Assembly: GCA_037721765.1 (NCBI GenBank)
Contig: JBBJOE010000003.1
Coordinates: 1-42,930, forward strand
Direction: 5' to 3'
Origin: Thermomicrobiales bacterium
GTDB taxonomy: Bacteria > Chloroflexota > Chloroflexia > Thermomicrobiales > UBA6265
DNA length: 42,930 nucleotides
Under the pieces are notes generated by a model. The model was not told the DNA's origin. It was given only the letters and a program-made list of their open reading frames with translations, and searched no databases. Positions 33,152-42,930 of the stretch are shown here, in pieces (position 1 is the first letter of the stretch; each line of letters opens with the position of its first letter). Made by a program: the position numbers and the translations under genes.

Positions 33152-33727
33152 TCAGTCCCCCAGGGGCATGGCGGACAGCGCGACCAGGTCCGCTCGCAGG
33201 CCGTCCCGGTTCAACCGGCCCCAGCGCTTCGCGACCGCCGCGTGCCGCTTTCCCCGATCGGTCCGCTCCCGGGCAAGGAGCGCTTCGAGGCCCCGGGCGA
33301 GGTCCGTCTCGCTCGTTCCGGTCGTCGTGTCGGCCGGGCCAATCTCGCCGTCCGACGCTGGCGCGCCGGTCCCGTCGGTATCCGGAGCCGCCGCATCTGC
33401 CGCCCCCGGCAGGGCCGCGATGGCATCCGTGATCAGGGCGATCCGGACATCCGCGTCGTGCAGGGTGCCCAGGTCCTCCTGCAGGGCCTTGATCGCGACG
33501 ATTGCCGCGTCCCCGCCCGCGCCGAACACGGTGCGGAACAACTCCAGCGTGTACCGCAAGCGCTTGGCCGCGATCCGGGCGTCATGCAGCTCCCGGGTCC
33601 GGTCGGCCTCGGGCATGATCGGACCGTAGCTCCACAGTTCGCCGATCCGCACGGCCAGGATCCGCCGGGCGTTCACGGCCAACGGCGCGCCGGGGTCGAC
33701 ATCGGGCACGGTCCAGGCACGGCTCAT
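33152..33727 (-). CDS. CHAD domain protein (C-lobe-type half)
   Basis: LHDARIAAKRLRYTLELF, LQEDLGTLHDADV; ATGA overlap with the upstream gene. Confidence 0.85.
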   Translation of the reverse strand: MSRAWTVPDVDPGAPLAVNARRILAVRIGELWSYGPIMPEADRTRELHDARIAAKRLRYTLELFRTVFGAGGDAAIVAIKALQEDLGTLHDADVRIALITDAIAALPGAADAAAPDTDGTGAPASDGEIGPADTTTGTSETDLARGLEALLARERTDRGKRHAAVAKRWGRLNRDGLRADLVALSAMPLGD

Positions 33728-34629
33728 CGCTTCTTCCCCCGTTGCCCGGCCTGCTCGGCCGCGGCCCTCGTCCGGGCAGATCGTGCCGTCCGGCCGGACG
33801 CTGGCGTCGCGGGCGCCTCGCTCGTTTGACCCTCGGCAGGCGTATCGGACCGGTCCGTCCCGGCGGCACTCCCGGCGAGTGCGCCGGATCCCCGACCGCG
33901 CTTCGTCCCCTTCTTTGACCTCGAACTCGGCGACTTAGGACGCGGCGATCCCCCTGAACCGGAACCCCTCTCGACCGAATCGGGTGATCCGGCGGACTCC
34001 TCGGCCCCCGGAGACCCCGCGACGCCGGTCGAGTCCCCGGTGGGCGACCTCTCGCCCGGACGATCCGCCCCCCAGCCGTCCTTCCCGGCATCCCCCTGGG
34101 CCTCGTCGGTCGCCCCGGTCGCCGGCGCCATCTCCGTGCCGGCCACCTGTCGCGGGAAGCGGCGCCGCGTCTCGGTCGCCAGGGCCGCGGGGTCGATGCC
34201 GGCCAGGAACCGCAGCATCTCCTCCCGGACCACCCCGCGCTCCCGTTCCACCCGGGCGATCAGCAGGTCGATCCCGGCCCGGTCGGCCGCCTTTGCCTTA
34301 CCGCGCCGCTCCTGGAGGTGACCGAGCAGGACATCGCGGTCCCGCACGTCACCCAGCGCGGCGGTGATCGCCTTCGCCGTCCGGTGCAGCCTCCGGTACC
34401 ATGGCTTGGGGAAGGCGTCCACGGCCACGTCCATCGCGGCCCGCAGGCGCCGGGATGCCACCCGCACGTCGTGGACGCCCTCCGGGTCGGTCCCGTCGAT
34501 GGCGGCCGGCAGGGCGGCCCACACCGCTTCCCATCGCTCCCCGATCAGGTGGGTCATCGCCTCCCGGTAGGGTGTCTCCGGGCCCGCCGGATCGCTCGCC
34601 GCCAGGCCGGTATCGTTCCTCGGCATCAT
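33724..34629 (-). CDS. CHAD domain protein (N-lobe-type half) with disordered tail
   Basis: DPEGVHDVRVASRRLRAA, LGDVRDRDV; G/S/P/K-rich C-terminus. Confidence 0.82.
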   Translation of the reverse strand: MMPRNDTGLAASDPAGPETPYREAMTHLIGERWEAVWAALPAAIDGTDPEGVHDVRVASRRLRAAMDVAVDAFPKPWYRRLHRTAKAITAALGDVRDRDVLLGHLQERRGKAKAADRAGIDLLIARVERERGVVREEMLRFLAGIDPAALATETRRRFPRQVAGTEMAPATGATDEAQGDAGKDGWGADRPGERSPTGDSTGVAGSPGAEESAGSPDSVERGSGSGGSPRPKSPSSRSKKGTKRGRGSGALAGSAAGTDRSDTPAEGQTSEAPATPASGRTARSARTRAAAEQAGQRGKKR

Positions 34630-34682
34630 GTCACTCCGTCTCATCTGGTCATGACCGCCACGGCGCGGTCCGGCCTCGTCGG

Positions 34683-35651
34683 TCACCCACCCGCGGGGAC
34701 CGTGCCTAGTCCTGTGGCGTCGGGCCGTGCTTCGAGACTGGCCGCCCCTCCATCCATCATGTCGAAGGTGTGGAGGAGCAGCCCCGCGCGGAGGCCACTC
34801 CGTGCGACCTCCACGTGCGATGGTCGCAGCAGGCGGTCCAGGGCCCGGACGATCGCGATCCCGGCTGGCAGGACCCGCGCCCGCGCCCCCTGGATACCGA
34901 GGTGGGCCGCCAGGGCGGCGGCGGGCTCCTCCCCGCACCGGGCCAGGGCCGCCTCGATCTCTACCCCGGTGACATGGTGAGCATCGGGCACCAGGCGGGC
35001 CAGGTACTCCCCGGTGCCCCCGACCGCGACCAACCGGCCGCCGATCCCCCCCGTGACCCCCCCGACCGTCAAGATGTCGAGGGCGGCGACCGTGCAAGCA
35101 TCCAGGTCGGCGACGGTCGGCGGGTCGGCCGGGTCGAGGAGGTCTGTCAACGCGCCCGAGCCCAACCGCAACGACGTGGCGGACCGGATCTCCCCGTCGA
35201 CCGCCACGATCACCTCGGTGCTGCCGCCGCCGATGTCGGCCACGGTGACCGGCCCGGTCAAGTCTATCTCCAGCGCCAGACCCCGGAACGTCATCGCCGC
35301 CTCTTCGTCGCCGGTGATCGCCGCCAGCTCCCATCCGGTCTCATCCCGGACCCGGCGCAGGAACTCCGCCCCGTTGCTGGCTCGCCGGGTCGCCTCGGTC
35401 GCGACCCCGACCAACCGCGTCGCACCCTGGTCACGCGCGACGGCGGCGAAGCGGGTGAGGGCCGCCAGCGCGGCCTCGACCCGATCGTCCGCCAATGAGC
35501 CCCGTACGGCCAGCCCGGCCCCGAGCCGGACCGTCTCCGCGTCCCTGGCAAGGGTCTGGAGGGTCCCGTCCGGCCTGCGACGCGCCACCGTCATCTTCAC
35601 GGTGTTGGACCCGACATCCACCGCGCCGATCACCGGTGCTCGTATGGTCAA
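34683..35651 (-). CDS. ppx: Ppx/GppA-family exopolyphosphatase (short form, no HD domain)
   Basis: AVDVGSNT, VRLG, ATEATR.ASN, EEA, DIGGGSTE, GGT, GLRAG; AAGGAGG before TTG. Confidence 0.88.
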   Translation of the reverse strand: MTIRAPVIGAVDVGSNTVKMTVARRRPDGTLQTLARDAETVRLGAGLAVRGSLADDRVEAALAALTRFAAVARDQGATRLVGVATEATRRASNGAEFLRRVRDETGWELAAITGDEEAAMTFRGLALEIDLTGPVTVADIGGGSTEVIVAVDGEIRSATSLRLGSGALTDLLDPADPPTVADLDACTVAALDILTVGGVTGGIGGRLVAVGGTGEYLARLVPDAHHVTGVEIEAALARCGEEPAAALAAHLGIQGARARVLPAGIAIVRALDRLLRPSHVEVARSGLRAGLLLHTFDMMDGGAASLEARPDATGLGTVPAGG

Positions 35652-36153: not shown

Positions 36154-37146
36154 TCAAGGCGTGGCATAGGTGTGCCAGGTCGTGAATCCAGCCTTGGCGT
36201 AGAAGTCCAGCAACGTCGTCCAGTCCGCGACGGCCTCGTCGACGCCGAGGTCGCGCAGGGAGGCCATCGTGGCGTGGAGGAAAGCTAAGCCGAGGCCGAG
36301 CCCCCGCAGCGACGACGCGATCCCGATCGGCCCGAGACCCCCCATGTGCGGCCCCGGGCGCCAGAACCGGGCCGGTCCGATGATGGCCTGGCCAGCGTGG
36401 TGCAACTGGGCCATTCCCACGATCCGCCCGTCCTGGGTGAGCAACAGCCAATCGCCGATCGCCCCACCGGAACGGAAGAAGCGGTCCGCGTTGGCCCACC
36501 AGCCGAGGCCGAACTCGTCGCGGACGAATCGGGACAGGACCTCCCGGTCGATCGCGTTCGCCCGCCGCACCACTAACCGGTGCCGTGCCATCAGGTGGCG
36601 GGACTCATCGGGCATCGTGGATCCGGAGATGTCCGCCCGGACATCCGCGACGGTTGACGCGAACCGGTACCCTAGCGACGCGAAGAATGCTCGCGCACCG
36701 GGCAGGTCGTCCGGCGGGCCCGGGAAGAGCCACACCGGTCCCCCACCCGCCGCCACCCGTGCCGGGTCGAGTCCATCCCCGTCGGTGTCCAGGAGGTGCC
36801 GGTGCATCCCGGTCCCGATCCCCAGTCGCCGCGACCCCGGTTCGACCACGATCGCCGTGACCCAGCCGGACGACCGCCAGGCCGCCCGGTCCGCGTCCTC
36901 ACCCCGGTAACGGCCCAGCGACCCGAACCCGACGATGTCGTGGTGACGCATCGCCACGACGGCGTCGCCCGGTCGGAAATCGCCATTCCCGAGGGTCACT
37001 TGCCGGAGCAGCGCCTCGCGGAGCGGGAAGGCCGGACCGACCGCCCGCTCCCACAACCCGAGCACGCCGGGCACGTGTCCCTCGGCGAACGGCAGGAGGA
37101 CGATGACGCCCGCCTCGTCAGCCAGGGGTGGCTCCGGGGCGGTCAA
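36154..37146 (-). CDS. tandem GNAT acetyltransferase
   Basis: Two acetyl-CoA motifs (V.PGSRRLGIGT; GPIGIASSLRGLGLG), DFYAKAGF; TTGA overlap with the upstream dehydratase stop. Confidence 0.82.
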   Translation of the reverse strand: MTAPEPPLADEAGVIVLLPFAEGHVPGVLGLWERAVGPAFPLREALLRQVTLGNGDFRPGDAVVAMRHHDIVGFGSLGRYRGEDADRAAWRSSGWVTAIVVEPGSRRLGIGTGMHRHLLDTDGDGLDPARVAAGGGPVWLFPGPPDDLPGARAFFASLGYRFASTVADVRADISGSTMPDESRHLMARHRLVVRRANAIDREVLSRFVRDEFGLGWWANADRFFRSGGAIGDWLLLTQDGRIVGMAQLHHAGQAIIGPARFWRPGPHMGGLGPIGIASSLRGLGLGLAFLHATMASLRDLGVDEAVADWTTLLDFYAKAGFTTWHTYATP

Positions 37147-39407
37147 TCGGCCGGCACCGCGACCGGCTCGGCAGCCGCGCCGACCGGCGAGCCATTGCGC
37201 GAGACGCCGCCGACCGTGGTCGCCGACCAGAACGGCACCGTGGCGTCCTCGGCCACCGCGATCGGCACCACGCCCATTGAGGCGTCGGTGCAGCCGACCA
37301 TCCGGTTGCTCGCCGCCACTCGCCGCTGCCGGGACCGCAGCCGGACCATCCGCTCGGCGGCCAGGTCGTCCCGGCCGGCCAATAGCGTCCCGGCATCGGG
37401 CACCGCCCGCCCGGCGACGAGCGCCGTCGGGTCGAGCAGGTCGATCCGGCGGGCCCGGAACCGGAGGTGGATCGGGTCCCCCGTCTTGAGGCGGAGGATG
37501 TCGCCACCCAAGGCGGCCTCGGGCACGACGTGGCCGATCGCGGCACCGTAGCTGACCCCGGAATACCGCCCGTCGCTGATCACGGTCGCCAGTTTCCGCA
37601 GGGCGCGGTTGGCGTTGATGTGCTGCATCGGGGTGAACATTTCCGGCATCCCGTAGGCGACGGGTCCCTGGGCAGCGATCACGATCGCCAGCTTCAGCGT
37701 CCCGGTCCGGACCATGTGGTCGAAGAGGTCGTCGTGACCCATTGCCCCGGTCCCCGCCGTGTCCAGGCGAAGGTCGGCCGCGTTGTGGCGCCAGGTCGCC
37801 CGCAGCGTCGCCTCGTCGAAGGCGCGGCCCTGCCGCCAGCGGTCGAGCAGGTGGATGTCGAGCAGATCGTCGTTGGCGTCTTCCTCGCACTCGTAGGCGA
37901 CGGCGAGGGCGACCTGCTCGTCGAAATGGTTGACCTGCGCCTCCGGCATGCCGCTGATCTTGACCACCGCGCTCTCGAAGAAGTTCCCGGCCAGGATATC
38001 GACCCCAGAGATCGCCCGCCGGGGCCGGGCCAGGATGACCGGGTTCTCCGTCACCCCGTCGGCGCTCAGGCCCTCGGGGTTCGCCAGGCGCTGGCGCCAC
38101 GTCGTCCCGGTGACGGTCATCGCGTCGAGGTCCATCGGCGCCCCGTTGCGGACCAGTTCGTGGACCAGCGTCTCCATGCCCCGGATGTCGCCCGAGCAGC
38201 ACTGCTTGGCCAGGGCGAAGATGTCCCGCCCCTGGGTCAGGCTGTAGTCGAACAGGTCCGGGATCGGGGCGGCCCGGTGGATGCGGTCCAGGTCATGGAT
38301 CGAGAACGCATAACCCGCGTACAGGACCGCGCCGACCAGGTGCATCAGCAAGTTCGTGCTGCCTCCGGAGGCGGCGTGGAGGCGGACCGCGTTGCCCATG
38401 TTGTGCAGCAGCACGTCGGCCACGCCGCATTCCGGCCGGTTGGCCAGGCCGACCAGGTCGGCCACCACCGCGTCGACCTGCGCGGTGGTCGGCGGGTCGG
38501 TCAGCAACTCGACGGCCGGGTGGACGAGGCCCATCGCCGCCACCAGGTGCCGCGACGAGTTCCCCGTCCCGTTGAAGGCGCAGATACCGCCCTTGCTATC
38601 ACAGGTGTTGATCGCGAGCGCCCGCTCGAAGTCCTTGTGCCGCTCGGGGGAGAGGATGCCGTGCTCGACGGCCCGGTGGAACACGCCCTGGAAGGCGGTA
38701 TTCGACGAGCACTGGAGGATGTAGGCCATCGTGTCGCGGAGGTCCTCGGCCACCTCCGGGTGCCCGGCGGTCACCGAGGCCCGGGCCAAATCGTCCAATT
38801 GCTCCCTGACATCCGCCGGGATCTCACCGCCCTTCAGGACGTGGGCCGGGGCGAAGGCCGCGAACACGGCCGGCTCGCCCCGAAAGCGGCGCAGGGTGTC
38901 GAGGTGAGCCAGCGCGGCGACCACGGCGAGGGGCATCTTGTCGCAGCTCTGGATCACGAAGGCGCCGTGGTAGGAATGGGCCTCCATCTGGTTGACGACC
39001 ATCTCGGCGATCGCGTTCCGGCTCTGGAGGCTGTAGCTCATCCCCATGTTGCTCTGGGCCGTGCCATCGCAGAGGACGGGGACCGAGAACGTGAACGGCA
39101 CCCCGCCTCGAGCCCAGATCGCCAGCGCCGCCCGGGCTCCCGTGCCGGGGTCCATGACGTGGGCCGGGTGGTCCGGCGACCCTCCTATGACCGCGATCCG
39201 CGGGGCATTGTGCTCCAGCCGGTCGTAAATCGCGCCGAGCGACCAGTCCGCCTCCGCCACCCATTCCCCCTCGGAGAGCAATTCCTTCCGGGCCCGGTCC
39301 AGGATCGCGGCCACGGTGATCGGCTCGTTGGCCTTGCCCTGGACGTTGTCCCGGTAGGGATTGACCGGGGTCTCGACACGCGGTCGGAGCGAGAGCGGGG
39401 CATCCAT
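37143..39407 (-). CDS. dihydroxy-acid dehydratase (IlvD/Edd) family, divergent
   Basis: CDG, SLQSRN, SCDK, GGICAFNGTGNS, GGSTN, GMPEM, SDGRYSG, IGHVVPEA. Confidence 0.87.
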   Translation of the reverse strand: MDAPLSLRPRVETPVNPYRDNVQGKANEPITVAAILDRARKELLSEGEWVAEADWSLGAIYDRLEHNAPRIAVIGGSPDHPAHVMDPGTGARAALAIWARGGVPFTFSVPVLCDGTAQSNMGMSYSLQSRNAIAEMVVNQMEAHSYHGAFVIQSCDKMPLAVVAALAHLDTLRRFRGEPAVFAAFAPAHVLKGGEIPADVREQLDDLARASVTAGHPEVAEDLRDTMAYILQCSSNTAFQGVFHRAVEHGILSPERHKDFERALAINTCDSKGGICAFNGTGNSSRHLVAAMGLVHPAVELLTDPPTTAQVDAVVADLVGLANRPECGVADVLLHNMGNAVRLHAASGGSTNLLMHLVGAVLYAGYAFSIHDLDRIHRAAPIPDLFDYSLTQGRDIFALAKQCCSGDIRGMETLVHELVRNGAPMDLDAMTVTGTTWRQRLANPEGLSADGVTENPVILARPRRAISGVDILAGNFFESAVVKISGMPEAQVNHFDEQVALAVAYECEEDANDDLLDIHLLDRWRQGRAFDEATLRATWRHNAADLRLDTAGTGAMGHDDLFDHMVRTGTLKLAIVIAAQGPVAYGMPEMFTPMQHINANRALRKLATVISDGRYSGVSYGAAIGHVVPEAALGGDILRLKTGDPIHLRFRARRIDLLDPTALVAGRAVPDAGTLLAGRDDLAAERMVRLRSRQRRVAASNRMVGCTDASMGVVPIAVAEDATVPFWSATTVGGVSRNGSPVGAAAEPVAVPAD

Positions 39408-39645: not shown

Positions 39646-40125
39646 ATGCGACGGGATGTGGTCGAGCGGGCGATGGTCCTCGGTGTCGCGACTGGCCTGC
39701 GGTCCCAGACGCCGATCGCGGTTGTGGCCCAAGTCGCCCAACGCCATCCCACGGTGGTCCGGCGGGGGAGTGTGGCGGTTCGCCTGCGGGAGCCTCGGGC
39801 GGCCCACTTCACCGGGGCGTCCGCGATCGGCGAGATGGTGGCCGACAAGTTGCCGTTCATTCCCAGCCGGCTGACCATGCCCGTCCTCGGAGGTCGCATC
39901 CTCTTCGGTGCCCTGGGAGGGGCCGCCATCACCCCCTCGGCCCACCCTGCCTGGCTCGGTGCCGCGGCCGGGGCCGTCGGTGCCGTGGCCGGCAACTTCG
40001 GTGGCTATCACGCCCGGGTCTGGCTCGGTAAGCGCACCGGCTGGCCCGACCCGGCCTTCGCCCTGGTCGAGGATACCATCGCCGTTACCCTGTCACTGTG
40101 GGCCGCCCGCGCGAGCGTGGATTAG
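39646..40125 (+). CDS. DUF4126-like membrane protein
   Basis: G.ATGLRS, GEMVADKLP..PSR, GRI..GA, ALVED. Confidence 0.7.
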   Translation: MRRDVVERAMVLGVATGLRSQTPIAVVAQVAQRHPTVVRRGSVAVRLREPRAAHFTGASAIGEMVADKLPFIPSRLTMPVLGGRILFGALGGAAITPSAHPAWLGAAAGAVGAVAGNFGGYHARVWLGKRTGWPDPAFALVEDTIAVTLSLWAARASVD

Positions 40126-40191
40126 CGTCCGGCGCCCCGTGCCGTTGCGTCGACGGCGACGGGTCGCGCTGGCCCATATCAGGAATCCCCG

Positions 40192-40200
40192 TGCTATCCT
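40192..40200 (+). promoter_or_regulatory. extended -10 promoter of the ArgE-like gene
   Basis: TG-c-TATCCT about 58 nt before ATG. Confidence 0.45.
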
Positions 40201-40257
40201 CCGCGACACTCTCCCCGTGGTCGTCACGAGAGACACGCTGGCCGGGAAGGATCACGC

Positions 40258-41565
40258 ATGGCAGACGGGTTGACGATGACGGGGCTCGACCCGGCGGTGA
40301 TGCGAGACATCACGGGTCGGGTCGATGTCCTGCGGGACGACCTCGTCGAATTGGTCCAAGCCCTCGTCCGCGTGCCGAGCATCACCGGGAACGAGGGCGC
40401 CGTCCAGGCGGTCGTTGCCGACCGCATGCGGTCTCTCGGGTTAGAAACCGAGGTCTGGGAACCGCGCACGGCCGACCTCCTTCCCTACCAGGACGAGGTC
40501 GGGACGATCGAGAGCCTAGAGGGCCGACCAAACGTGGTCGGCACCTGGAGGGGCCGGGGCGGGACCGGTCATTCCCTGATCCTCAACGCCCACATCGATA
40601 CGGTTGAAACCGGCGACCCCGCCCGCTGGACGCATCCCCCGTTCGCGGCCGAGGTCGCCGGCGGCATGATCTGGGGCCGGGGCGCCTGCGACATGAAGGG
40701 CGGCCTGGCGACTCACCTGATGGCGCTCCGCGCGATCCGGGACCTGGGCCTGCTCCCGGCCGGAGACGTGACGGTGCAGAGCGTCATGTCCGAGGAGGAC
40801 GGCGGGGCAGGGGCGGCGGCGGCCATCCTGCGCGGCCCCCGCGCCGACGCGGCCATCATCACCGAGCCGACCCGGCTGGCCATGATCCCGGCCCAAGGCG
40901 GCTCACTGGTCTTCCGCCTCCACGTCGAGGGCAAATCCGCCCACGCCTGCGTCCGCGACGAGGGCGTCAGCGCGATCGAGGCCTTCCAAACCATCCACCG
41001 GGGCCTCCTCGCCTTCGAGGCGCGGCGCAACGCGACCCTCGACCACCCCCTCTACCGCCCGATCGCGAATAAGGTCCCCATCAGCATCGGGACCGTGAGG
41101 GCCGGGGCCTGGCCGTCATCGGTGCCCGAGTGGCTGGAAGCCGAGGGCCGGGCGGGCCTGGTGCCAGGGGAATCGATCGCCACCTTCCGGGGGGAGTTCG
41201 TGGCCGAGGTCGCCCGCATCGCCGGAGCCGATCCCTGGCTGCGCGAGCACCCGCCCCGGATCGAGTGGTTCGGTGGTCAGTTCGCGCCGGCCGAGGTCGC
41301 CCCGGACAGCGCCATCGCCCGGGCGGTCATCGACGCCCACGCTGCCGTCACCGGGTCCGAACCCCCGGTCGAGGCCGCGACCTACGGCGCCGACATGCGC
41401 CACTTCCTCTACCTGGCGGGAATCCCCTGCGTGATGTATGGCGCGGGCGACGTCCGGGTCGCCCACTTCACTGACGAGCACGTCTCGATCGACGACCTCG
41501 TGACCGCGACCAAGACGATCGCCGTGGTCGTCGCCTCTTGGTGCGGAGTGGTAGCCGCGAACTGA
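40258..41565 (+). CDS. M20 ArgE/DapE-family deacylase
   Basis: LNAHIDTV, GRGACDMKGG, SEED, EPT, GKSAHA, AHFTDE. Confidence 0.92.
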   Translation: MADGLTMTGLDPAVMRDITGRVDVLRDDLVELVQALVRVPSITGNEGAVQAVVADRMRSLGLETEVWEPRTADLLPYQDEVGTIESLEGRPNVVGTWRGRGGTGHSLILNAHIDTVETGDPARWTHPPFAAEVAGGMIWGRGACDMKGGLATHLMALRAIRDLGLLPAGDVTVQSVMSEEDGGAGAAAAILRGPRADAAIITEPTRLAMIPAQGGSLVFRLHVEGKSAHACVRDEGVSAIEAFQTIHRGLLAFEARRNATLDHPLYRPIANKVPISIGTVRAGAWPSSVPEWLEAEGRAGLVPGESIATFRGEFVAEVARIAGADPWLREHPPRIEWFGGQFAPAEVAPDSAIARAVIDAHAAVTGSEPPVEAATYGADMRHFLYLAGIPCVMYGAGDVRVAHFTDEHVSIDDLVTATKTIAVVVASWCGVVAAN

Positions 41566-41765
41566 GGTCCACGCGGCGGCGATGACGATACCAGGGTTGC
41601 CCGGACCACCTGACACCCACCGAACACCGCGTTCTCGTTTCTCCTCTCGGTTGCGCCCTCGGGGCGGCGTCGTACCGCCGACCCGGCCAGAAAAGGGTCG
41701 CTCGACCTGACCGGTCCGGGAGTCGATGGCCCGGTGCCGTGCCCCGGGACGACCGCGATGCCGCC

Positions 41766-41794
41766 GGAACGACCAGGGACGACCAGGAACGACC
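41766..41794 (+). repeat. three tandem 10-bp repeats GG(A/G)ACGACCA (third truncated)
   Basis: ggaacgacca-gggacgacca-ggaacgacc read directly. Confidence 0.6.
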
Positions 41795-41831
41795 CCCCGG
41801 GTTCTCCGGCTTCCCAGGGTGAGAGGCCACC

Positions 41832-42065
41832 ATGGGACGGGTCGTCGTCGTGAATCGCCAAGGCCACCAAGTCGTGGATCGGGACACCACCGACACCGAG
41901 CAGGCGCGGGCGGGCATCGCCGAGGCCGAGCGGATCGTGCGGGAGGCTCGCGTCGCGGGCTGCGCCATCTCGAAGAGAGTCGACGGGATCCATGTCCCAG
42001 ACGAATCTCCCTTCGACCCGGCCGCCGAGGAATATCAGATCATCGCCCCGATCGCCGGCGGCTGA
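41832..42065 (+). CDS. 77-aa protein with C-terminal di-glycine (ubiquitin/ThiS/MoaD-like tail)
   Basis: GAGAGG RBS, high GC3, ends FDPAAEEYQIIAPIAGG-stop. Confidence 0.75.
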   Translation: MGRVVVVNRQGHQVVDRDTTDTEQARAGIAEAERIVREARVAGCAISKRVDGIHVPDESPFDPAAEEYQIIAPIAGG

Positions 42066-42068
42066 CCC

Positions 42069-42360
42069 GGTGGTGCGCCGGCTCGCCCCGTGGCGGTGGC
42101 GGTCACGCCACGGTGGCGCGCGCTCCGGTCTGCCGCATGCCAGGGCCAGGGATGCTGGACTCGAACTCCCCTGGCGGTACCGCTGGGATCTCCCGCCGAA
42201 GCGTTCTGCCAGTATCGATTATTCCGACCGGGTCTACCGGTTGGCCCGGAGGCGGACCGGACACCTGGCCGAACGTACCCTAGGGACCGAACTCTGGCGG
42301 CAGGACGGCCGCGACGGCCATCTGGACCTACCCTCGGGCCCGTTCCCCGGCATCGGCTAA
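42069..42360 (+). other. possible small ORF or gene remnant
   Basis: 3' part (LELPWRYRWD...YSDRVYRLARRRTG...LWRQDG) has GC3-rich codons; no clear RBS or start. Confidence 0.25.
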
Positions 42361-42738
42361 CGCCTCCACATCGGGCAGAGGATCGAGGTCGTCACGGTTC
42401 CCGGCGTCCGGCTCCCGTGGCGATATCCATACCTGTGCATCAATCCGGCCCATCCTCTCCCCGAGGCCCAGCTCCTCGCCCACCCCTATCTCTCTGTCCG
42501 GGATCGGGAGACCGAGGTGATCCGCGTCGCCACCTCCCAACGCTGGGACCAGGCCCTGAGCCGCACCTACTGATCGTCACCCCGGCCCGGCCCGCGCGGG
42601 TTCGGCCGGAGAAACGTCCTCTCCTTGCCGAACATGGGACGCCCCCGGCACGACGACGAGGGTCGCGGCGGGGGCGCTCTTTAGAACGGCGACATCCGAA
42701 GGAACCTCGGTGTCCCCGGGGACACTCCCAGTCCAATT

Positions 42739-42930
42739 CTAGTTGGTGACCTTCTTGACGAGATCGTCGACCTTGTCTTTGGCATCGGCCATGCCCTGCT
42801 GAAGCTTGCCCTTGTTCTCCTGGGCCTCGCCCTCGGCCTGCGTCTCCTCGTCGCCGGTCAAGTCACCGAAGCCACCCTTTACCTGGCCGCCGACCTCATC
42901 CATTTTGCCATCGATCCGGTCCCGGCTGGA
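42739..42930 (-). CDS. csbD: CsbD-family general stress protein (5' end outside window)
   Basis: Not in the ORF track; my translation is SSRDRIDGKMDEVGGQVKGGFGDLTGDEETQAEGEAQENKGKLQQGMADAKDKVDDLVKKVTN-stop. Confidence 0.88.
   Translation of the reverse strand, partial: SSRDRIDGKMDEVGGQVKGGFGDLTGDEETQAEGEAQENKGKLQQGMADAKDKVDDLVKKVTN

Follow-up and report, generated by a model that had tools for sequence, protein, structure and literature searches.

Is the small open reading frame (ORF) near the end of a Thermomicrobiales contig the gene of an orphan modifier, as the Gly-Gly terminus of its product led a first reading to propose, or does it belong with another gene? The stretch in question (GenBank assembly GCA_037721765.1, contig JBBJOE010000003.1, positions 1 to 42,930 of the forward strand; hereafter the window) is one entire contig, C174, of a 3.07-Mb assembly in 418 contigs, and the ORF, here called Ubl (ubiquitin-like), lies at 41832..42065. 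The original prediction, made from the letters of the DNA, took its 77-amino-acid (aa) product for a stand-alone protein modifier or sulfur carrier. On the evidence set out below, Ubl is half of an undescribed two-gene module of Chloroflexota; the other half is a small protein with one invariant cysteine, and its gene is very probably a pseudogene in this genome (Table 1).

A conserved gene pair

It is virtually certain that Ubl is a real gene of a conserved family. The ORF begins with ATG behind a good ribosome-binding site, as originally read, and its product ends in EEYQIIAPIAGG, followed by TGA. A word-indexed search of 5.8 billion proteins yielded 663 homologues at E <= 0.01 from 665 candidates, and the 120 matches listed share 68-100% identity and are for the most part 77 aa long to the residue. 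An exhaustive HMMER search of 1.84 billion cluster representatives gave just 43 matches at E <= 0.001; judged by these counts, the family has many members but is narrow. Ubl-encoding loci numbered 136 in a scan of one genome per species, and the 80 of them that were kept are the basis of all counts out of 80 below, the window being added for counts out of 81. By title, the 80 are Chloroflexota metagenome-assembled genomes (Thermomicrobiales, Ktedonobacterales, Dehalococcoidia and others), with one labelled Proteobacteria and two 'uncultured bacterium'. Between the window and a genome of the same genus (G001), Ubl has a nonsynonymous divergence (dN) of 0.095 and a synonymous divergence (dS) of 0.635; comparisons with more distant loci, in which synonymous sites are saturated, were used qualitatively only. 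A chance ORF is ruled out by the homologues, the number of loci and a dS far above dN.

The terminus read as YQIIAPIAGG-stop is present in the window and widely kept in the family. P-I-A-G-G is invariant in an alignment of 23 Ubl sequences, and so is F61-D62-P63, the start of an FDPxAE motif that had been singled out, with the Gly-Gly (GG) end, for a check of conservation. G76-G77, P73, D62-P63, N8, G11 and H54 are invariant in a wider alignment of 31 sequences that includes members of 37-45% identity, the P-x-x-G-G pattern being kept down to 37% identity and also in a paralogous family described below. A stop codon directly follows GG in 77 of the 80 loci, and the other three (L003, L009 and L080) extend by 2 to more than 15 residues. 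Among divergent Ubls, P0142, P0149, P0156 and P0160 end in P-[IL]-x-G-G and P0126 in ...PLIGK, and P0144 and P0125 are apparently frameshifted.

The company that the gene keeps was read by clustering, over the 81 loci, every ORF that reached 70 aa and lay no more than 7 kb from Ubl. The sole conserved neighbour is a + strand ORF immediately 3' of Ubl, found in 81/81 loci; the commonest other neighbour, an ABC-F ATPase, occurs in 18, and the M20 peptidase encoded upstream of Ubl in the window in just 7. The product of this neighbour, called here the partner, is about 165 aa long (160-200 aa), with a variable Trp/Arg-rich N-terminus and a conserved core of ~115 aa, and its consensus reads ...E-R-P-W..RWDHLPKRSAG...GYLDLPS...TYRLRVGRRIEV...PYLCINPTYPLPE.EFFAHLYLYVRD...AAPQPWDQ.LGRTF. 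An alignment of 39 partners has 49 invariant columns, one of them the single Cys (39/39). Profiles of Ubl and of the partner match the identical 6 of 21 related genomes (G000, G001, G003, G005, G013 and G017), the other 15 being without either, and the module is patchy, occurring in 4 of the 13 genomes of the window's own family (window genome counted). As far as these loci and genomes tell, the two genes are inseparable, and the partner is probably obligate and bound to Ubl in a complex. Neither Pfam nor NCBIfam has a family for the partner, no sequence relatives of it were found in the PDB, and its Atlas matches are solely 'hypothetical' Chloroflexota clusters. Longer fused forms were also considered; they came down to one 1043-aa 'glutamate synthase' call (39% of the partner, 90% identity), probably a run-through gene call.

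The description of Ubl as an orphan therefore has to be given up, since a conserved gene adjoins it in every locus, co-occurs with it across the 21 genomes and encodes a protein predicted to bind it; the original prediction missed this gene probably because it is a pseudogene in the window. That Ubl is nevertheless a stand-alone modifier or sulfur carrier, served only by enzymes encoded elsewhere, is very unlikely on the same three grounds. The window itself offers what there is in favour of such a role: with the partner broken, Ubl is intact here and its dN is no higher than that of orthologue pairs, so that in this species it may act alone, if it acts at all.

The pair has more distant relatives. 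A search of 401 Chloroflexota genomes with the Ubl profile matched 83 (the unpublished G058 and G246 among them); core-family matches score E 1e-36 to 1e-44, and a second tier of full-length matches scores E 1e-7 to 1e-14. The second-tier genes encode proteins of ~80 aa in 1-3 copies per genome. They form a paralogous family of 3671 proteins or more, every one of them 'hypothetical', with members in cultured Dictyobacter, Ktedonosporobacter and Thermosporothrix. The consensus of 20 of these genes is MGMLRVMSRRGDDR..W......AAVREAERIF...RGATAF....FD..AEQIVMVPRVVGG; 19 of the 20 products stop after GG and one ends in GGEE. A gene for a protein of ~136-155 aa lies downstream at 18 of the 20 loci, and its product begins with a hydrophobic, membrane-like helix (consensus ...GYLEVPSP...YRIP...V.V...LCLQP.EPLPD.DVV.HKLMIE..E..YL..AN). 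The partner Cys is kept in the paralogues (12/12 aligned; LC in all 18 listed). Comparison of profiles by hhalign establishes homology for each half of the pair, the core and paralogous Ubls matching at 98.9% probability (E 1.4e-17) and the two partner families at 96.8% (E 2.9e-10).

A third, divergent subfamily is represented by the P0142 Ubl (85 aa, ending in APLVGG) and, in two metagenome loci, has a ~360-aa protein encoded downstream whose C-terminus is the partner core (...GYLEV...YRL...YLCVGP...), the Cys being retained in these long partners as well (YLCVGP). The gene block around this subfamily (L086:1-13548 and L081:1-7203) encodes 963-aa and 817-aa P-loop proteins (TraG P-loop, AAA_10; TraG/VirB4-like ATPases), a 631-aa polytopic membrane protein and a 386-aa protein with an SH3_3 tail, and in L081 a TnpB/IS605 OrfB gene lies directly upstream of Ubl. 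By its gene content, the block looks like a conjugative element.

Such a setting raises the thought that the pair is mobile-element or defence cargo, toxin-antitoxin-like or anti-phage, rather than a housekeeping module, and the patchiness of the module among close relatives, the 1-3 paralogue copies per genome and a weak match of the partner fold to an unnamed phage protein (E 3.2e-3) point the same way. This is nevertheless highly improbable. No PADLOC model matches Ubl, its sole PHROGs match (phrog_21306, a family of unknown function, E 0.033) lies above the usual threshold, and tblastn of phage and plasmid collections gave no match. Conservation at the sequence level is very high (68-79% across orders), with low dN, and the core loci lie amid varied chromosomal housekeeping genes, without integrases.

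Predicted folds and complex

The N-terminal beta segment and the helix proposed for Ubl both appear in an AlphaFold2 model of the window protein (alignment of 31 rows), which has a predicted local distance difference test (pLDDT) score of 84.6 and a predicted template modelling score (pTM) of 0.66. Its elements (E2-8 E11-17 H23-41 E45-50 E53-56 E67-71) follow the bb-a-bb-b order of the beta-grasp fold, and the C-terminal tail has a pLDDT of ~70. Foldseek found nothing in the PDB at E <= 0.001; its best rows (E 0.017-0.1, template modelling score 0.3-0.45) are the Raf RBD, ubiquitin, PB1, RA and protein L, all of them beta-grasp. VIA-align against 48,161 chains returned protein L (Z 5.2) and Mth1743 (4.9; root-mean-square deviation 2.7, 58 residues aligned), followed by PB1, RnfH, Urm1 (3.9), BubA (3.9), TtuB (3.8), MoaD (3.5-3.6) and CysO (3.4), and on Foldseek's top 1000 chains the best Z reached up to 5.5. 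The matches are nearly all beta-grasp domains and span residues 1-77, at Z values (3.3-5.5) that are low. A beta-grasp fold, for which a structural check had been proposed, is quite likely for Ubl, the models supporting it at the level of topology, which is no proof of kinship.

The view that Ubl belongs to an uncharacterised family is likewise supported by the searches, which gave no real match in Pfam, NCBIfam, PHROGs or PADLOC. An NCBIfam match to an rRNA methyltransferase (E 0.086, its 12 bits falling far short of the cut-off of 380) is noise, and four profiles (A3, A2, A8 and A7) run against the sequences of solved structures gave no real match. Searches of a literature collection with few subscription-journal papers, PMC11354881 among those consulted, gave no description of the family. 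The C-terminal hairpin of Ubl (41989-42062, residues ~53-77; H-V-x-D..FDPxxEEYQIIAPI) resembles the consensus of the designed Kelch-type 'SAKe' repeat; this likeness, seen with profile A3, has a summed E of 4.7e-16 but a per-repeat E of ~16 or more, comes from a repeated FDPxxEEYxxxAP-like hairpin and was set aside as motif-level only. Six members (P0020, P0056, P0074, P0091, P0113 and P0115) are named 'ArsR family metal-binding transcriptional regulator' by JGI, a name that has no Pfam or NCBIfam support. A metal-binding role of two conserved His and a Cys was rejected, given that H12, H54 and C44 are not retained in the paralogous family and that no model backs the ArsR name.

The partner was modelled from the intact protein of locus L071 (L071:7165-7647, model mf5c3a9b8bcf6, 39 rows) with a pLDDT of 84.5 and a pTM of 0.74, residues 1-45 being of low confidence. 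The core has the order a-bbbb-aa (H47-65, H67-76, E79-82, E89-93, E99-103, E115-117, H126-139, H141-147, E149-151), and about half of its 50 VIA-align rows are, by title, RWD, E2, UEV or FANCL central domains. The RWD rows are 2daw (Z 3.8), 2yz0 (3.4), 7e2k, 2ebm and 2day, the UEV rows Tsg101 (3.0) and VPS37A, and the E2 rows Ubc9 (3.3), E2S, Ube2W, E2E1, UbcH5, UbcH10 and others, the FANCL central domain scoring 3.2. The invariant Cys117 ends strand 4, ahead of a Pro-rich N-P-x-Y-P-L-P loop and a helix. In E2s the catalytic Cys lies in the region after the fourth strand, and RWD domains have a YPxxxP loop there; the order of elements and the position of the Cys in the model are a hint of the E2/RWD superfamily. 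On the other hand, the partner differs from E2, UEV and RWD proteins in its low scores (Z 2.4-3.8), in having no HPN motif and no Foldseek or Pfam match, and in an extra N-terminal ERPW segment.

Some viral likenesses were also recorded. The best match of the partner model in BFVD is the unnamed phage protein mentioned above, A0A1P8DIP4 (268 aa; probability 1.00, template modelling score 0.45, 113 columns), a second protein of the same accession series follows at E 0.041, and a viral 76-aa cluster is the second-best Atlas feature match of Ubl. Besides phage clusters, the Atlas gives a hint of clusters from Planctomycetota and Actinomycetota.

Prediction of the complex of the cognate L071 pair gave scores of 0.87, 0.88 and 0.88, the best of three controls scoring 0.00; the 0.88 mark is reached by 116 of 157 solved complexes and by 2 of 215 mismatched pairs, a calibration that is only rough here, the score having come from our own, unpaired alignments. 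The runs share at least 96% of contacts, with a partner pLDDT of at least 89. On Ubl, the predicted interface takes in residues 5-13, 15, 31, 35, 38-39, 42-45, 47, 49, 52-56, 67 and 69-77, that is, the hairpin, the face of strands 3 and 4 and the whole tail. On the partner it takes in residues 19-20, 24-30 (the ERPW segment, which wraps Ubl), scattered positions in 41-69, 117-125 (the Cys and the NPxYPLP loop), 128-149 and 161, so that the Ubl tail (69-77) and the stretch around Cys117 are both in the predicted contact set. Almost every invariant residue of the two proteins falls in this interface, which would account for their unusual conservation. No like complex is known, and therefore a prediction from recall is unlikely. 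The model supports binding of Ubl and partner without demonstrating it.

A pair bound in this way need not carry out any chemistry. The two proteins could form a stable non-covalent heterodimer, structural or regulatory and possibly membrane-associated, in which the GG tail would be a slim plug in a groove and no E1 would be needed. The very large and confident predicted interface accounts for nearly all invariant residues under this explanation, residues after GG are tolerated in 3 of the 80 loci, no E1, E2 or deubiquitinase (DUB) is linked to the 81 loci, and RWD and UEV domains, which come out as the best fold matches of the partner, weak as these are, bind without catalysing a reaction. 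Against it stand the exact GG end in 77/80 core and 19/20 paralogue loci, in families only ~31% identical, the strict invariance of the single Cys beside the tail in three partner subfamilies, and a similarity to MoaD/ThiS that is concentrated at the tail. A purely non-covalent pair is rather unlikely on balance.

Possible chemistry at the Gly-Gly tail

The absence of ThiF/MoeB, JAB, thi and moa genes from the window, as first reported, holds for the 25 long ORFs of one scan and the 5 of another, and the proposed neighbourhood search for E1, E2 or JAB partners found no E1, no JAB and no E2 of a known family linked to Ubl in the 81 loci, the only conserved neighbour being the cysteine-bearing partner. 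The only PF00899 (ThiF/MoeB) match in the window genome is a gene on contig C305, unlinked to Ubl. Five other genomes have 1-4 PF00899 matches, and a complete genome with three paralogue copies only one; there is no E1 dedicated to the module. The C305 locus (L102, 1459-3712) encodes this E1, a 350-aa protein with CxxC pairs and an extra C-terminal domain, and next a 425-aa ORF resembling class-V aminotransferases and cysteine desulfurases that overlaps the end of the E1 gene slightly, a pair that looks sulfur-mobilising.

In the mechanism that we prefer, Ubl would be a small beta-grasp protein with a free, flexible Pro-x-x-Gly-Gly tail, and the partner would be the second half of the module. 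The two are predicted to form a tight 1:1 complex, in which one face of the Ubl sheet (hairpin 5-13, strands 42-56 and strand 67-71) and the tail (69-77) would lie on the partner, at a docking site made of the Cys117/N-P-x-Y-P-L-P loop and the two helices behind it. The tail carboxylate would be activated by the cell's single housekeeping ThiF/MoeB-type E1 and the activated Ubl passed to the partner Cys as a thioester, the partner being a small, membrane-associated, E2/RWD-like acceptor that may hand Ubl on to some target. These parts differ in strength. Covalent chemistry of some kind at the tail, with the Cys taking part, has about an even chance. The best explanation as a whole, comprising the two-gene module, the complex, an E2-like transfer and a dead partner in the window, is put forward tentatively, and the E2-like thioester relay in particular, preferred as it is, must be called doubtful. 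An extended version is improbable: here Ubl charged by the housekeeping E1 would form a thioester on the partner and be attached to envelope proteins or lipids by an Atg8/Atg3-like logic, with no dedicated E1, E3 or protease gene, and an ancient duplication would have given rise to three or more lineages in which Ubl and partner co-evolve, one such lineage being carried on conjugative elements.

The same facts can be arranged as a sulfur-carrier pair, in which the ThiF/MoeB E1, together with a cysteine desulfurase, would adenylate the end of Ubl and turn it into a thiocarboxylate, and the partner would be the synthase or acceptor, as MoaE is for MoaD. Like Ubl, the carriers MoaD, ThiS and CysO are ~80-aa beta-grasp proteins ending in P-x-x-G-G, and the tails of MoaD/CysO in related genomes (PPVSGG, PAMAGG) fit the Ubl pattern. 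Profile similarity in the C-terminal register is weak and above control: hhalign of Ubl against 24 MoaD/ThiS sequences from related genomes aligned 61 columns, in register to GG, at a probability of 36% and E 3.8e-4, and the last 26 columns of the paralogue Ubl gave 76% and E 2.4e-5, against E 0.22 and 0.24 for two unrelated control pairs. A carrier gene beside a gene for a small partner, with the E1 elsewhere, is the moaD-moaE layout; the neighbouring protein (~150 aa) is here predicted to hold the tail, and the predicted interface is large, obligate-looking and buries it. Moreover, the sole E1 lies beside the cysteine desulfurase-like gene, and the best Atlas feature match of Ubl (0.95) is a cluster auto-named 'putative ThiS'.

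A sulfur-carrier role is nonetheless unlikely. The partner has no similarity to MoaE, ThiG, CysM or TtuA by Pfam or fold, and a core of ~115 aa with half its surface on Ubl leaves scant room for a substrate pocket. Ubl itself escapes PF02597, unlike the known carriers, and the module has a partner with one invariant Cys and, in the paralogues, a membrane helix, an anchoring that is unusual among cofactor synthases. Its patchy, lineage-restricted distribution is unlike that of an essential cofactor pathway. Canonical PF02597 carriers are already present in 21/21 genomes, the one of the window genome on contig C6 (the unpublished relatives G007 and G011 are counted only in this PF02597 tally).

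The E2-like relay has to be weighed against a number of unfavourable results. For Ubl, a Pfam-A hmmscan at E <= 1 gave 0 families, PF02597 (ThiS/MoaD) included, and PF02597 searches of the window genome and 20 relatives match other loci, never the Ubl gene; its Z values of up to 5.5 lie in a range that possibly reflects common arrangement only. For the partner, an hmmscan of three intact proteins at E <= 1 returned no UQ_con, RWD, UEV or Prok-E2_A-E family, and one paralogue partner scanned at the same threshold gave no E2, UEV or RWD family. Foldseek found no match for the partner in the PDB (best E 0.6), the best Z of the wide VIA-align search, 3.8, is below the 7-8 typical even for unmatched models, and heads of SAS-6, CCDC61 and PAXX tie with the RWD and E2 rows, SAS-6/XRCC4-like heads lying within 1 Z of them. 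Up to 7 kb from Ubl on either side, the 81 loci have no linked gene for an E1, a JAB/DUB or a known E2 family, and no characterised bacterial Ubl conjugation operon is known to lack all three. The complex score is only roughly calibrated. With 141-145 contacts, the predicted interface is what one would sooner expect of an obligate heterodimer, for instance a sulfur carrier and its synthase, than of a short-lived E2-Ubl encounter. The conservation of GG and Cys could be structural, both being buried in the predicted interface. Finally, an intact Ubl beside a dead partner is odd if Ubl is useless alone.

The module can also be compared with other systems. Archaeal SAMPs and Thermus TtuB use one ThiF/MoeB-type E1 for both sulfur transfer and protein conjugation, without an E2. 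The module resembles them in a GG-ended beta-grasp Ubl and a single ThiF/MoeB E1 in the genome, with TtuB among the fold matches (Z 3.8-4.3), and differs in its obligate Cys-bearing partner gene, SAMPs and TtuB having none; no sequence similarity to them was detected. Pup is disordered and ends in GGQ or GGE. Like Pup and UBact, Ubl is a small bacterial protein, a candidate modifier, with Gly-Gly close to its C-terminus; it differs in having a predicted fold (pLDDT 84.6) and a GG-stop end, which agrees with the early exclusion of a Pup-type end, and no PafA/Dop-type ligase was noted among its conserved neighbours. With Bub, Bil and CBASS Cap2/Cap3, the module shares a beta-grasp Ubl with a C-terminal Gly and a small a/b protein that is possibly E2-like, and BubA (9eav_C) is among the fold matches of Ubl (Z 3.9), as a stretch of BubCD (9eav_D) is among those of the partner (Z 2.6). 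Unlike these systems, it consists of two genes only, with no linked E1 or protease in the 81 loci, no PADLOC match and a chromosomal housekeeping context; we know of no described bacterial ubiquitin-like system of this group (CBASS Cap2/3, Bil, Bub) that does not carry its own E1. In Bub operons, E1, E2, Ubl and protease are encoded together and act via oxyesters, according to PMC11601596.

Ubiquitin-related machinery in bacteria (CBASS Cap2/3, Bil and Bub) is under active study. If confirmed, the module would add a version with two genes only, one for a Gly-Gly beta-grasp protein and one for a small cysteine protein outside known families, and would be either the simplest known Ubl-E2-like relay or a new pair of sulfur carrier and acceptor. 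It is found in thousands of Chloroflexota sequences, those of cultured Ktedonobacteria included.

Probable partner pseudogene and other features of the window

In the window, the partner reading frame opens with a GTG 4 nt beyond the Ubl stop codon and is interrupted by a TAA. The intact L071 and L004 partners align with it by tblastn at 57-61% identity over 137-138 aa, with one in-frame stop, and a genome-wide profile search scored it at 190.6 bits with '1 TAA'. Contigs of four public runs from four studies, one of which may be the source sample, span the TAA with no difference listed, and this rules out a sequencing or assembly error. The possibility of a split functional partner was rejected as well: no in-frame ATG, GTG or TTG follows soon after the TAA, which makes translation of the distal half unlikely. 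The frame has also lost conserved residues elsewhere, 13 of the 62 columns with at least 95% conservation being altered; over 71 sequences the median is 0, and after the window copy the largest number is 7. In the same-genus genome G001 the partner is intact and Ubl is consensus-like; the partner core of the window is identical to that of G001 at 96/137 positions, with a dN of 0.187. Ubl and partner are each single-copy in the window genome.

Ubl has fared differently. It deviates from its family at 3 of the 34 columns of at least 95% conservation (I4V, A7V and W17R) and has Pro at position 56, within the predicted interface, where the 23-sequence consensus has Leu. Among the contigs of public runs, both population differences in Ubl (41870 and 41933) are synonymous, and the nine in the partner fall at four first, one second and four third codon positions. 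By these comparisons the window Ubl is intact, with slight acceleration at most. The public runs with this sequence include no listed RNA run, which bears on expression in neither direction. The module is probably no longer working in this genome, because the partner is dead by a nonsense codon and lost conserved residues, and the intact Ubl is a survivor, still under constraint or only lately released. For the window, this means the annotation of one real small gene of a new family and of an adjoining, previously unannotated pseudogene, in a species in which the module is being lost.

Table 1. Features at the 3' end of the window
Feature	Coordinates	Strand	Evidence
77-aa gene (Ubl), beta-grasp-like, free C-terminal Pro-Ile-Ala-Gly-Gly	41832..42065	+	ORF, homologues, AlphaFold2 model
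Shine-Dalgarno-like GAGAGG, 5 nt before the Ubl ATG	41821..41826	+	Sequence inspection
Probable partner pseudogene; GTG start inferred; core from ~42157 (LELPW...), end ...ALSRTY then TGA	42070..42573	+	tblastn, profile search
In-frame TAA for an invariant Tyr codon (relatives PGVTYRLRVG, here PGIG*RLHIG)	42358..42360	+	Alignment with relatives, tblastn
CsbD-like small stress protein gene (PF05532, E 3.5e-13), at contig end, convergent with the partner pseudogene	42739-42903	-	Pfam scan

As to signals around the pair, a scan of 41400-42930 gave 0 sigma-70-like promoter sites, an Rfam scan of 40000-42930 gave no match at E <= 0.1, and a terminator scan gave one terminator-like site, within the CsbD gene region. 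The other genes of the window are of housekeeping type and include those for Lon, Hsp20, a ClpB-like ATPase, a RadA-like protein, S1 and TrpRS, among others. Two abutting ORFs on the - strand, 33155-33727 and 33727-35334, match the back (141-227) and the front (3-132) of the CHAD model, respectively, and may be a split or frameshifted CHAD gene. The ORF 36154-38202 (- strand) has two GNAT acetyltransferase matches and overlaps, in another frame, the 3' part of 37143-39407 (- strand), which encodes a 754-aa dehydratase of the ILVD/EDD family; the upstream part of the GNAT ORF is probably non-coding.

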